The notes below the pieces were generated by a model, which worked only from the letters and a program-made list of their open reading frames with translations, was not told where the DNA came from and ran no database searches. Both the position numbers and the translations under genes were made by a program. Positions 48,462 to 52,251 of a stretch of 64,000 nt of DNA are shown piece after piece; position 1 is the first letter of the stretch; every line of letters begins with the position of its first letter. Origin of the DNA: Escherichia coli (lineage in GTDB: Bacteria; Pseudomonadota; Gammaproteobacteria; Enterobacterales; Enterobacteriaceae). The DNA lies in assembly GCF_002854065.1 (NCBI RefSeq), contig NZ_CP024147.1. One strand, given 5' to 3'.

Positions 48462-49007
<546 letters not shown>

Positions 49008-49016
49008 GAGAATTGC

Positions 49017-49808
49017 ATGAGCAGTAACTTCAGACATCAACTATTGAGTCTGTCGTTACTGGTTGGTATAGCGGCCCCCTGGGCCGCTTTTGCTCAGGCA
49101 CCAATCAGTAGTGTCGGCTCAGGCTCGGTCGAAGACCGCGTCACTCAACTTGAGCGTATTTCTAATGCTCACAGCCAGCTTTTAACCCAACTCCAGCAAC
49201 AACTCTCTGATAATCAATCCGATATTGATTCCCTGCGTGGTCAGATTCAGGAAAATCAGTATCAACTGAATCAGGTCGTGGAGCGGCAAAAGCAGATCCT
49301 GTTGCAGATCGACAGCCTCAGCAGCGGTGGTGCAGCGGCGCAATCAACCAGCGGTGATCAAAGCGGTGCGGCGGCATCAACGACGCCGACAGCTGATGCT
49401 GGTACTGCGAATGCTGGCGCGCCGGTGAAAAGCGGTGATGCAAACACGGATTACAATGCAGCTATTGCGCTGGTGCAGGATAAATCCCGCCAGGATGACG
49501 CAATGGTGGCATTTCAGAATTTCATCAAAAATTACCCTGATTCAACTTACCTGCCAAACGCCAATTATTGGCTGGGTCAGTTAAACTACAACAAGGGTAA
49601 AAAAGATGATGCGGCGTACTATTTTGCTTCGGTAGTGAAAAACTATCCGAAGTCACCAAAGGCTGCAGATGCGATGTTTAAAGTCGGTGTCATCATGCAG
49701 GACAAAGGTGACACCGCAAAAGCGAAAGCCGTATACCAGCAGGTTATCAGTAAATACCCTGGTACTGATGGCGCTAAACAGGCACAAAAACGTCTGAACG
49801 CGATGTAA
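49017..49808 (+). CDS. cpoB: Cell division coordinator CpoB (YbgF; TPR protein)
   Basis: 263-aa ORF with signal peptide, coiled coil and TPR region; last gene of the tol-pal cluster. Confidence 0.95.
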   Translation: MSSNFRHQLLSLSLLVGIAAPWAAFAQAPISSVGSGSVEDRVTQLERISNAHSQLLTQLQQQLSDNQSDIDSLRGQIQENQYQLNQVVERQKQILLQIDSLSSGGAAAQSTSGDQSGAAASTTPTADAGTANAGAPVKSGDANTDYNAAIALVQDKSRQDDAMVAFQNFIKNYPDSTYLPNANYWLGQLNYNKGKKDDAAYYFASVVKNYPKSPKAADAMFKVGVIMQDKGDTAKAKAVYQQVISKYPGTDGAKQAQKRLNAM

Positions 49809-49817
49809 TGCATAACA

Positions 49818-49852
49818 CACGACCAGAAGTCGCATTATTTCTGGTCGTGTCG
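49818..49852 (+). terminator. Rho-independent terminator after cpoB
   Basis: Hairpin cacgaccagaa…ttctggtcgtg. Confidence 0.6.
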
Positions 49853-49972
49853 TGCGAATCATAAGCAGTTGAGTGATCTACATCGAAATTTTTGTTGCGC
49901 TCAAGTCTGAAATCAGTAATATATGCCGCCGTTGCCACGGGATATCAAACAAACCGAAAGCAACGAAAAAGT

Positions 49973-50048
49973 GGGTCGTTAGCTCAGTTGGTAGAGCAGT
50001 TGACTTTTAATCAATTGGTCGCAGGTTCGAATCCTGCACGACCCACCA
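49973..50048 (+). tRNA. lysT: tRNA-Lys (anticodon UUU)
   Basis: 76-nt GGGTCGTTAGCTCAGTTGGTAGAGC…CTTTTAATC…GGTTCGAATCCTGCACGACCCACCA. Confidence 0.97.
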
Positions 50049-50083
50049 CTAACCTAGTTAGTTGTAGTATCCAGCGTAGTATC

Positions 50084-50159
50084 GGGTGATTAGCTCAGCT
50101 GGGAGAGCACCTCCCTTACAAGGAGGGGGTCGGCGGTTCGATCCCGTCATCACCCACCA
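50084..50159 (+). tRNA. valT: tRNA-Val (anticodon UAC)
   Basis: 76-nt GGGTGATTAGCTCAGCTGGGAGAGC…CCTTACAAGG…GGTTCGATCCCGTCATCACCCACCA. Confidence 0.97.
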
Positions 50160-50161
50160 CC

Positions 50162-50237
50162 GGGTCGTTAGCTCAGTTGGTAGAGCAGTTGACTTTTAAT
50201 CAATTGGTCGCAGGTTCGAATCCTGCACGACCCACCA
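50162..50237 (+). tRNA. lysW: tRNA-Lys (anticodon UUU)
   Basis: Identical to the first tRNA-Lys copy. Confidence 0.97.
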
Positions 50238-50288
50238 CTAATTACGGTGGGTTCGGTGGAAGTAGTTTGTAGTATCCAGCGCAGTATC

Positions 50289-50364
50289 GGGTGATTAGCT
50301 CAGCTGGGAGAGCACCTCCCTTACAAGGAGGGGGTCGGCGGTTCGAACCCGTCATCACCCACCA
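50289..50364 (+). tRNA. valZ: tRNA-Val (anticodon UAC)
   Basis: As valT, with a T-arm variant (GGTTCGAACCC). Confidence 0.97.
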
Positions 50365-50367
50365 CTC

Positions 50368-50443
50368 GGGTCGTTAGCTCAGTTGGTAGAGCAGTTGACT
50401 TTTAATCAATTGGTCGCAGGTTCGAATCCTGCACGACCCACCA
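50368..50443 (+). tRNA. lysY: tRNA-Lys (anticodon UUU)
   Basis: Identical tRNA-Lys copy. Confidence 0.97.
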
Positions 50444-50589
50444 GTTTTAACATCAAACTCAGATGTTAAGCGTGAAGGATAACGTTGCGCCAGCAACGGC
50501 CCGTAGGGCGAGCGAAGCGAGTCATCCTGCACGACCCACCAATCTTAAAGATTGGCCCCGAGTAAAAATCTTTCAGGTAACACCCGTAT

Positions 50590-50665
50590 GGGTCGTTAGC
50601 TCAGTTGGTAGAGCAGTTGACTTTTAATCAATTGGTCGCAGGTTCGAATCCTGCACGACCCACCA
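50590..50665 (+). tRNA. lysZ: tRNA-Lys (anticodon UUU)
   Basis: Identical tRNA-Lys copy. Confidence 0.97.
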
Positions 50666-50698
50666 TCCTGAATGATTAAAGCAGCATAATCCCGCAAG

Positions 50699-50774
50699 GG
50701 GTCGTTAGCTCAGTTGGTAGAGCAGTTGACTTTTAATCAATTGGTCGCAGGTTCGAATCCTGCACGACCCACCA
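50699..50774 (+). tRNA. lysQ: tRNA-Lys (anticodon UUU)
   Basis: Identical tRNA-Lys copy, followed by a terminator. Confidence 0.97.
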
Positions 50775-50778
50775 ATGT

Positions 50779-50808
50779 AAAAAAGCGCCCTAAAGGCGCT
50801 TTTTTGCT
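50779..50808 (+). terminator. Rho-independent terminator of the tRNA operon
   Basis: aaaaaagcgccctaaaggcgcttttttgct; a second copy lies at 50935–50965. Confidence 0.8.
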
Positions 50809-51117
50809 ATCTGCGATACTCAAAGATTCGAACCTGCAGCAGGTTTGAGTTGAGCGTAGCGAAACAACGGAGCCGCTCGCGGCGACGGCCCGAAGGGCGA
50901 GCGAAGCGAGTCATCCTGCACGACCCACCAATGTAAAAAAGCGCCCTAAAGGCGCTTTTTTGCTATTCAGGCATCTCTCAATTTCAATTCTTGACCCTGA
51001 TGACATACTTCGCGCTTGCTGCGTAAACAACTTTACGTCGGAGGAATAAGACGCAAAGTGTGGCATTCGGCATCTCATACGTAATTCGAGTGACTTTTCC
51101 CCACCATTCGACTATCT

Positions 51118-51135
51118 TGTTTAGCATATAAAACA
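51118..51135. promoter_or_regulatory. Putative NadR operator upstream of nadA
   Basis: Palindrome tgtttagcatataaaaca (TGTTTA-N6-TAAACA type). Confidence 0.5.
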
Positions 51136-51207
51136 AATTACACCGATAACAGCGAATATCACGCTAATGTCGGTTTTAACGTTAAGCTTGTAAAACGAGA
51201 TGGTAAG

Positions 51208-52251
51208 ATGAGCGTGATGTTTGATCCAGACACGGCGATTTATCCTTTCCCCCCGAAGCCGACGCCGTTAAGCATTGATGAAAAAGCGTATTACCGCGAG
51301 AAGATAAAACGTCTGCTAAAAGAACGTAATGCGGTGATGGTTGCCCACTACTATACCGATCCCGAAATTCAACAACTGGCAGAAGAAACCGGTGGTTGTA
51401 TTTCTGATTCTCTGGAAATGGCGCGCTTCGGTGCAAAGCATCCCGCTTCTACGTTGTTAGTCGCTGGGGTGAGATTTATGGGAGAAACCGCCAAAATTCT
51501 CAGTCCGGAAAAAACAATTCTGATGCCGACACTTCAGGCTGAGTGTTCACTGGATCTCGGCTGCCCTGTTGAAGAATTTAACGCATTTTGCGATGCCCAT
51601 CCCGATCGTACTGTCGTCGTCTACGCCAACACTTCTGCTGCGGTAAAAGCGCGCGCAGATTGGGTGGTAACTTCAAGCGTTGCCGTCGAACTTATTGATC
51701 ATCTTGATAGTTTGGGTGAAAAAATCATCTGGGCACCCGACAAACATCTGGGGCGTTACGTGCAAAAACAGACGGGCGCAGACATTTTATGCTGGCAGGG
51801 TGCTTGCATTGTGCATGATGAATTTAAGACTCAGGCGTTAACCCGCTTGCAAGAAGAATACCCGGATGCTGCCATACTGGTGCATCCAGAATCACCACAA
51901 GCTATTGTAGATATGGCTGATGCGGTCGGTTCCACCAGTCAACTGATCGCTGCTGCAAAAACATTGCCACATCAGCGGCTTATCGTGGCAACCGATCGGG
52001 GCATTTTCTACAAAATGCAGCAGGCGGTGCCAGATAAAGAGTTACTGGAAGCACCAACCGCGGGTGAGGGCGCAACCTGCCGCAGCTGCGCGCATTGTCC
52101 GTGGATGGCCATGAATGGCCTTCAGGCTATCGCTGAGGCATTAGAACAGGAAGGAAGTAATCACGAGGTTCATGTTGATGAGAGGCTGCGAGAGAGGGCG
52201 CTGGTGCCGCTCAATCGTATGCTGGATTTTGCGGCTACACTACGTGGATAA
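51208..52251 (+). CDS. nadA: Quinolinate synthase A
   Basis: 347-aa ORF; N-terminus [18 protein letters not shown]; synteny with pnuC. Confidence 0.95.

Follow-up and report, generated by a model that had tools for sequence, protein, structure and literature searches.

Orphan tRNA-Lys 3' ends in the lysT operon of Escherichia coli are very probably the tails of RtT-family spacer modules

The closest described relatives of the elements considered here are the RtT units (rttR, 178-bp repeats) of tyrT-tyrV, the founding locus of the family, where the four units of Escherichia coli K-12 score 133-138 bits against the Rfam model RF00391 (RtT RNA). According to papers citing Bosl and Kersten (1991), the rtT RNA of tyrT was detected as an RNA and modulates the stringent response or the response to amino-acid starvation. 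RtT-family RNAs beside Lys and Asn tRNA genes in Actinobacillus have been detected by Northern analysis (PMC4986893), and several RtT RNAs give RNA-seq signal in Klebsiella (PMC4147364).

We analysed a stretch of 64,000 nt from E. coli (assembly GCF_002854065.1, contig NZ_CP024147.1), hereafter the window. It carries the lysT tRNA operon at positions 49973-50774 of the plus strand, on which all features described below also lie. The operon contains seven intact tRNAs in the order Lys-Val-Lys-Val-Lys-Lys-Lys, which ARAGORN calls as five Lys(UUU) and two Val(UAC); Rfam tRNA matches and the RefSeq annotation of the near-identical strain 100416 back these calls. On the plus strand there are seven copies of the 18-mer ATCCTGCACGACCCACCA, of which five form tRNA-Lys 3' ends and two stand alone as orphans; no chance copies of it are expected (100 shuffles). 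The first orphan (50524-50541) and the second (50913-50930) are exact copies of the last 18 nt of tRNA-Lys, running from the T loop to CCA. ARAGORN and a repeat search thus agree with the original prediction on the seven intact tRNAs and on the positions of the two orphan ends. That prediction had also described a common sequence of roughly 30 nt ahead of both orphans. Such a sequence exists as part of a 57-nt direct repeat of 93% identity (50493-50549 and 50882-50938) that comprises the common upstream stretch and the 18-mer, but one of the two variant positions claimed for it, a g/a difference, is g in both copies; the two copies of the 27-nt string that had been given differ only at the t/a position.

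We consider it very likely that the lysT operon contains two spacer modules of the RtT family, referred to here as modules A and C, and that the orphan ends are their 3' tails. RF00391 matches the window at 50375-50541 with 54.4 bits and at 50805-50930 with 47.1 bits, relative to a curated gathering score of 45 bits, and both matches end exactly at the CCA of an orphan; the 5' part of the 54.4-bit match is borrowed from the body of lysY via a 44-nt insertion. The lysT-operon modules of four strains, all of those in K-12 included, score between 46.7 and 60.6 bits. The equivalent of module C is labelled 'RtT sRNA' by PGAP in strain 100416, K-12 and many other RefSeq E. coli. Alignment with the tyrT units reveals a common core of about 55 nt, consisting of AACGTTGC-loop-GCAACG, GCCCGNAGGGC, a third hairpin and GAGTMAT, beyond which the sequence switches to the local tRNA 3' end (ATCCTTCCCCCACCACCA at tyrT and ATCCTGCACGACCCACCA in the lysT operon). 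Modules A and C both have a tRNA upstream on the same strand and a tail that copies its 3' end with the CCA, the features by which RtT elements are recognised. Because the family has been described and is routinely annotated by the standard RefSeq pipeline, elements of this kind count as already known. Rfam matches to YrlA, Plastid-ycf2 and AgrB over the array were sub-threshold, and we attribute them to resemblance with tRNAs or terminators.

Module A is a short-type RtT-like element, defined by its RF00391 match and its fold, that begins immediately 3' of the lysY CCA and ends with the orphan CCA (50444-50541), occupying 98 nt at the start of the lysY-lysZ spacer (146 nt). Identical in sequence to the lysY module of K-12, it consists, in order, of a small AU-rich hairpin, a 5' arm, three core hairpins and the tail. 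The arm CGTGAAGGAT (50471-50480), which was delimited by single-sequence folding, RNAalifold, pair counts and an anchored swap test, is predicted to pair with the start of the tail, ATCCTGCACG (50524-50533), with one A x G mismatch. The conserved RtT core (50481-50523) was defined by alignment with the tyrT units and other lysT-operon units, by invariant columns and by covariation in the third hairpin; it comprises hairpin 1 (AACGTTGC-GCCA-GCAACG), hairpin 2 (GCCC-GTA-GGGC) and hairpin 3 (GAGCGAAGCGAG), followed by TC. In the predicted fold of module A (-32.7 kcal/mol, z = -3.5) the arm is paired with bases 1-10 of the tail, so that the outer arm/tail helix of RF00391 is predicted here and is backed by covariation.

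Module C is a long-type RtT element located behind the end of the operon (50806-50930) and recognised by RF00391 and by the PGAP 'RtT sRNA' label on the equivalent stretch. It is preceded by a terminator directly 3' of lysQ (ATGTAAAAAAGCGCCCTAAAGGCGCTTTTTTGCTAT, 50775-50810; -19.1 kcal/mol, z = -5.1), of which an identical copy follows it (50931-50966; centroid -19.1 kcal/mol, z = -4.4). The first copy has been described as the Rho-independent terminator of the operon, identical to that of lysV (PMC4176162). Plus-strand terminators were absent from the output of the consensus terminator scan and were checked by folding instead, which gave the same A-tract, 13-bp hairpin and U-tract for both copies. 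A consensus scan for promoters found no promoter-like site in 49700-51300. The duplication of the lysQ terminator block about 150 bp downstream, which the original prediction had also reported, proved to be a 54-nt exact repeat with a period of 156 nt (50757-50810 and 50913-50966) that covers the lysQ end or orphan tail plus the terminator. Since tRNA calls, repeats and terminator folds all agree, that description of the locus is correct. The layout at 50775-50966 is therefore one of tandem predicted intrinsic terminators with a core module and an orphan 3' end between them, and the operon ends in two identical terminators 156 nt apart because module C brings its own tRNA end and terminator. 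In K-12, the same terminator-C-terminator block is found behind lysV in the unlinked valU operon.

Module C contains a T-arm palindrome (50825-50850), read from the sequence and predicted to form a strong hairpin. Its first part, GATTCGAACCTGC (50825-50837), is the reverse complement of the 5' half and loop of the tRNA-Lys T arm; one A further on, GCAGGTTTGAGT (50839-50850) is a direct, slightly diverged copy of the T-arm half. The palindrome aligns with GAACCTTCGAC-AAGGTTCGA of the tyrT units. The internal hairpins of module C are present, but its outer arm/tail helix is degenerate, with pairs flagged by Rfam as non-standard, and is absent from the predicted fold (z = -1.7).

To relate these modules to a larger set, we searched for the core pattern GCRACGRCCCGWAGGGYGA in a collection in which each species is represented by a single genome, and obtained at least 120 loci. 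Among the matches listed, 60 of the 75 with a same-strand tRNA within 1.2 kb have an exact tail copy of at least 16 nt of that upstream tRNA (Lys 26, Tyr 23, Arg(ACG) 8 and Pro 3), and over the last 16 nt the tail is identical to the tRNA in 59 of 70 listed cases. Species-specific tRNA variants recur in the tails, such as ACGCCCC in the Lys tail of Citrobacter sp. FP75 and CCCCCGCC in the Tyr tails of two other species. Judged from these sequences, the tail evolves in concert with its neighbour gene, because tails are identical to the tRNA and mirror its species-specific variants.

The 5' arm follows the tail. A free-register helix search of the tail against 110 nt upstream was too noisy, and we replaced it with a register anchored on the invariant GGAT/ATCC, scoring six class-specific positions of the arm. 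With tails of their own class, arms scored 5.25/6 (Tyr), 5/6 (Lys) and 5/6 (Arg), versus 2.75-4.3 with swapped tails. For 21 distinct short-type modules of the Lys and Arg classes, RNAalifold recovered the arm/tail helix and the three hairpins. Paired cells amounted to 94.8%, versus 87.6 +/- 0.8% in shuffles (none of 500 reached the observed value) and 29-50% with slid partners, and the covariation score was 0.147 versus 0.052. Across these two classes, one pair of the outer helix switches between UA and GC, and in hairpin 3 five pair types occur at one pair; the outer-helix covariation represents few independent events, since few tRNA classes lie behind the signal. This comparative pattern shows that the predicted arm/tail helix and hairpins are under selection for pairing. 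The orphan ends are not bare footprints: each corresponds to one strand of a covarying helix of the element, which in module C is degenerate.

If the modules were instead decayed tRNA-Lys pseudogenes, created by tandem gene duplication and subsequent loss of the 5' two-thirds, one could point to a duplication-prone array, in which strain GPEC1210 has an additional tRNA-Lys unit, and to the T-arm-derived segments, inverted and direct, of the long-type module. The body of the modules, however, is unlike that of tRNA-Lys and has no ARAGORN or Rfam tRNA match, and other loci combine this body with Tyr, Arg, Pro or 5S tails. Its core is highly conserved with hairpin covariation rather than decayed, and no intermediates between tRNA-Lys and a module were found in any relative of the sample examined. 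We regard an origin by such decay as improbable.

A coding role, in which the modules would specify small basic peptides comparable to that of tpr, the ORF annotated as 'protamine-like' in the tyrT repeats, seems to us less probable still. The same frame is open through the core (tpr ...RRQRPEGRSAQR, module C ...RRRPEGRAKRVILHDPPM and module A ...QQRPVGRAKRVILHDPP...), but the ORFs of the Lys modules begin at TTG and continue through the tRNA tail. The RPEGR they have in common follows automatically from the conserved nucleotide core, and the changes in hairpin 3 are compensatory in the RNA while amino acids are not preserved.

The original prediction took partial tRNA 3' ends as classic footprints either of integrase-mediated site-specific recombination or of unequal crossing-over within tRNA arrays. 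Under the first of these, an integrase-carrying element, or its remnant, would have duplicated the tRNA-Lys 3' end in the attL/attR manner and left the orphan 18-mers behind. P4-type integrases typically duplicate the tRNA segment from T loop to CCA upon tRNA-targeted integration; the repeats at the lysT operon span these limits, and the presence of modules differs between strains. Against this, the repeats are only 80-138 nt apart and the DNA between them is the conserved RtT core. Elsewhere this core follows tRNAs for Tyr, Arg and Pro as well as 5S rRNA and carries the corresponding tails, so that integration would need many integrase specificities, and the modules are common to other genera. 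A search of the annotated neighbourhood, 20 kb to each side, found neither integrase nor prophage genes; the only features there are the cyd, tol-pal, cpoB, nadA, pnuC, zitB, aroG, gal and mod genes and two IS1. The IS1 copies lie some 18-19 kb from the locus. With no integrase nearby, a small insert of a conserved family and a further copy at lysV, the att-site reading is out for practical purposes, and we consider it highly unlikely. The RtT-module reading accounts for the same repeats as tails.

Unequal crossing-over within the array fits the variation among strains. We dissected twelve E. coli alleles, that of the window included, and write them with K for tRNA-Lys, V for tRNA-Val, a module and its length including the tail in brackets, numbers for spacers and t for a terminator. 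The window reads K-35-V-2-K-51-V-3-K[A98]-48-K-33-K t [C156] t, and K-12 reads K[B100]-35-V-2-K[A98]-51-V-3-K[A98]-48-K[B99]-33-K t [C156] t. Strain 536 has a bare array without any module. NRZ14408 and ECO_1_S have two tandem [C156]t units, and WP4-S18, O15_8X and HS-01 are without the C module. One V-K unit is missing in O139:H1 W13-16, one K-48 unit is added in GPEC1210, and O157:H7 6535WT has four Lys genes and module A only. The number of orphan tails per allele ranges from none (536) to five (K-12). Where a module is absent, the downstream spacer resumes exactly after the genuine CCA, and every module insertion or deletion is therefore bounded by an 18-nt direct repeat. Z1323CEC0008 has a chimeric gene, with the first ~25 nt from tRNA-Val and the remainder from tRNA-Lys, that is a crossover between valT and lysW. 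The differences in whole modules, in tandem 156-nt units and in tRNA units, together with this chimera, are those that unequal crossing-over would produce. A literature search for tyrT repeats in connection with unequal crossing-over returned nothing relevant.

The junction at the lysY site was found in at most 4061 of 5426 complete genomes, an upper bound with nearby pieces merged into one match, and the module C body in 3238 of 5426, with the lysQ and lysV loci not distinguished. Only 406 of the 5426 genomes had the full architecture of the window as a single collinear match. RtT was annotated in 17 of 34 rows covering the nadA side in an evenly spread sample. Junction-BLAST counts for tandem or absent C modules were discarded as inflated and mutually incompatible, neighbouring pieces having been merged. 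The original prediction had proposed a comparison with K-12 and other E. coli and held that fragments identical in all of them would be ancient spacer features rather than recent recombination scars. The comparison shows that the fragments vary between strains and that the locus is polymorphic; nevertheless, the modules are old by the evidence of sequence comparison. Among the matches listed, Lys short-type modules also occur in Citrobacter, Enterobacter, Pluralibacter, Phytobacter and an Enterobacteriaceae isolate.

The following model would combine these observations. In each module, three hairpins would form the core, and the 5' arm would close it by pairing with a tail that repeats the final 16-18 nt of the upstream stable RNA. 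The repeated tRNA ends, the whole tRNA-Lys genes and the tail-plus-terminator blocks would serve as substrates for unequal homologous recombination or slippage, which at repeats of 18 nt or longer may change copy number and homogenise the tails. In this way, recombination could add or remove modules precisely and keep each tail identical to the neighbouring tRNA. Module A, lying inside the operon, would be transcribed within the polycistronic precursor and presumably excised as a folded by-product of tRNA processing, like rtT RNA from tyrT. Module C would be reached by read-through only, and the second identical terminator would presumably act as a back-up site for processing or termination.

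In K-12, probes for lysT spacers detect a precursor of ~1100 nt; RNase P works on this precursor from its 3' end, and RNase E is able to cut its long spacers (PMC4176162). A transcript of ~1100 nt implies that most transcription ends before module C. Northern blots of wild-type K-12 with spacer probes have yielded no report of a stable spacer RNA from the lysT operon (PMC4176162), and a literature search for lysY/lysZ spacer RNAs found nothing relevant. A trans-acting role of the lysine modules, by analogy with the rtT RNA of tyrT, is conjectural, and any function of the modules would be dispensable, since natural strains such as 536 are without all of them.

Across Enterobacterales, the association of the core with stable RNAs extends beyond Tyr, Lys, Arg and Pro tRNAs to 5S rRNA. 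In some core matches the tail is AACTGCCAGGCAT, the sequence with which 5S rRNA ends. Pseudocitrobacter has a module of this kind, with a 5S tail and a complementary 5' arm (GGCAGTT), between a 5S gene and tRNA-Thr, and a further 5S comes next. Downstream of 5S in rrnB of K-12 come a terminator hairpin, the core again, an orphan AACTGCCAGGCAT-CAAAT and another terminator hairpin; in the coordinates of that locus (L136), 5S lies at 138-257, the core at ~361-412 and the orphan AACTGCCAGGCAT at 413-425, and both terminator hairpins are strong. This region downstream of 5S is that of the T1-T2 terminators. Alcanivorax sp. 24 has a core-sharing repeat at sites distant from tRNAs, with at least 20 copies that are often in tandem, and, among the matches listed, such a repeat also occurs in several copies in Pectobacterium, Arsukibacterium and Brenneria. 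This tRNA-free repeat had no Rfam family match at the gathering score.

Such repeats bear on the main live alternative, namely that the modules are selfish or neutral structured repeats of REP or MITE type, which would do nothing for the host and whose tails would be kept identical by gene conversion. The core-sharing multi-copy repeats of Alcanivorax sp. 24, Pectobacterium, Arsukibacterium and Brenneria are what it would predict, as are the free loss of modules among E. coli strains, down to none in 536, and the lack of any reported stable RNA in the wild type. However, the orientation of the modules is always that of the upstream stable RNA gene, and the 5' arm matches the tail in each tRNA class, for which gene conversion of the tail alone is insufficient. 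Moreover, Northern blots of Actinobacillus and RNA-seq of Klebsiella have revealed RtT RNAs, and citing papers relate both detection of and a phenotype for the rtT RNA of tyrT. The covariation between predicted arm and tail also argues against a purely neutral state. We hold the selfish or neutral reading to be possible but distinctly the less probable account.

A broader extension of the RtT-module reading is possible, which we put forward tentatively and ourselves doubt. The RtT core might be an ancient gamma-proteobacterial family of cassettes behind stable RNAs (Tyr, Lys, Arg and Pro tRNAs and 5S, including rrnB T1-T2) that always carry the 3' end of the host RNA and a co-evolving arm, with the repeats of Alcanivorax and Pectobacterium as members. 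Such cassettes might mimic the mature 3' end, perhaps serving the 3' processing or termination machinery (RNase E, P, T or PH) as decoys or landing sites, or insulating the upstream RNA so that it folds undisturbed. The general rule that the core carries the 3' end of the preceding stable RNA, rrnB T1-T2 included, was not found in the literature searched.

For annotation, these results imply that partial tRNA 3' ends within or after tRNA operons are not automatically integration scars. They also identify a housekeeping tRNA operon as a hotspot of modular recombination in which spacer modules, terminator copies and tRNA gene number vary, with consequences for strain typing, for studies of tRNA dosage and for engineered strains. 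The rrnB T1-T2 terminator fragment, which is in wide use, contains this core as well, and the combination of core, upstream RNA 3' end and compensating arm offers a concrete, testable handle on the RtT RNA family. We rate the interest of the locus as low to moderate; it stems mainly from the modular polymorphism and from the core/3'-end pattern across stable RNAs.

Four known systems resemble the lysine modules to different degrees. The att sites of tRNA-integrating elements are likewise direct repeats of the 3' part of a tRNA from the T loop onwards that flank an insert; in the lysine modules, by contrast, the insert is a structured 80-138 nt, no recombinase is nearby, and the insert is also found with other tRNA and 5S tails. 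Spacer-derived regulatory RNAs such as 3'ETS-leuZ are excised from tRNA precursors and can act in trans, their activity depending on pairing with small RNAs and on Hfq. The lysine modules would likewise be RNA segments released in the processing of a tRNA precursor, but they hold a tRNA 3' end and an RtT core, whereas RNAs of the 3'ETS-leuZ type, to our knowledge, carry neither.

With the RtT units of tyrT-tyrV, the lysine modules have in common the core (AACGTTGC-loop-GCAACG, GCCCGAAGGGC and the third hairpin), a same-strand site 3' of a tRNA, a tail equal to the tRNA 3' end including CCA, the arm/tail closing helix (as predicted for module A) and a tendency to tandem copies. They differ in that their tail and 5' arm are specific to tRNA-Lys and in their scores of 47-54 rather than 133-138 bits; in addition, module A is shortened and without the internal T-arm-like hairpin, and module C is without the outer helix and sits behind a terminator. 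The rrnB T1-T2 region has the same succession of stable RNA gene, terminator, RtT-like core, orphan 3' end and second terminator, although its upstream RNA is 5S rRNA, its T1 and T2 are different hairpins whereas the lysQ pair is identical, and the 5S-type element is not called RtT at the Rfam gathering score (as tested on the related locus L086). Because rrnB has the same order, the tail and second terminator after lysQ can be seen as the tRNA-operon counterpart of this rRNA-operon design.

Downstream of lysV in the valU-valX-valY-lysV operon of E. coli K-12 (L135, the extracted K-12 locus, 854–1116), the same succession is found as after lysQ, namely a terminator, the long RtT-type module C, its tail and a terminator, with one base different. 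The 12 nt past lysV's second terminator match the start of another unit, and the lysV-side block carries no annotation in MG1655's own record.

At the sequence level, the orphan tail of module A, the short module in the lysY-lysZ spacer, has a single substitution (ATCCTGCACGAGCCACCA) in three strains (L004 1055–1200, L131 and L133); within E. coli, such tails can therefore diverge from the tRNA that they copy. An identical substitution is present in both tRNA-Val genes of the operon in E. coli O157:H7 6535WT (GGAGGGGGGCGGCGG vs GGAGGGGGTCGGCGG in the window and K-12; L128 2135–2210 and 2340–2415), which suggests that these two copies have been homogenised. The valT position of E. coli Z1323CEC0008 (NZ_CP148461.1; L130 1276–1351) is occupied by a chimeric tRNA gene, to which tRNA-Val contributes the first ~25 nt (the acceptor 5' strand and the D arm) and tRNA-Lys the remainder, including the UUU anticodon. 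Both PGAP and ARAGORN call this gene tRNA-Lys, and the predicted acceptor stem of its product contains two mismatches.

Both lysine modules contain mini-ORFs with a TTG start (50485–50565 and 50850–50936 in the window). These have an RPEGR/RPVGR motif in common with tpr, which is annotated as a 'protamine-like' ORF in the tyrT repeats (L005 1288–1377), and all of them pass through the conserved core in one shared frame. This same-frame reading of a conserved core places the status of tpr as a real gene in doubt.

At 49000–49046 of the window, Rfam's model of the CpoB/ybgF thermometer RNA gives a match that stays below threshold (37.9 bits, with the gathering score at 51). The match is clipped at its 5' end, where the searched stretch begins; the complete element is probably located just upstream, before cpoB.

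The RtT core is also found behind 5S rRNA. Between the two rrnB terminator hairpins of K-12 (L136 258–470, NC_000913.3 4171757–4171969), the core (GAACGTTGCGAAGCAACGGCCCGGAGGGTG plus hairpin) is followed by an orphan 5S rRNA 3' end (AACTGCCAGGCAT-CAAAT) immediately before terminator 2. Seven further loci were grouped with this case (L113, L086, L013, L094, L095, L116 and L120), and in other genera the 5S-tailed version of the core module is located between 5S rRNA and tRNA-Thr. Rfam made no RtT call at gathering score for the 5S-tailed modules, as tested on L086.

Core hairpins 1 and 2 (attgccgggagcaatttttaacgttgc..GCGACGGCCCGAAGGGTGA-hairpin-TCATAAAAAA) recur in a repeat of Alcanivorax sp. 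24 (L031–L045) and other loci (L046, L082–L083, L090–L093, L101–L102, L057, L114 and L119), which occurs in many copies, frequently in tandem with a period of ~74 nt, and distant from tRNA genes. At least 20 copies reside in the single genome of Alcanivorax sp. 24, and the repeat reaches the gathering score of no Rfam family. It may be related to the RtT core as an element of the REP or MITE type.
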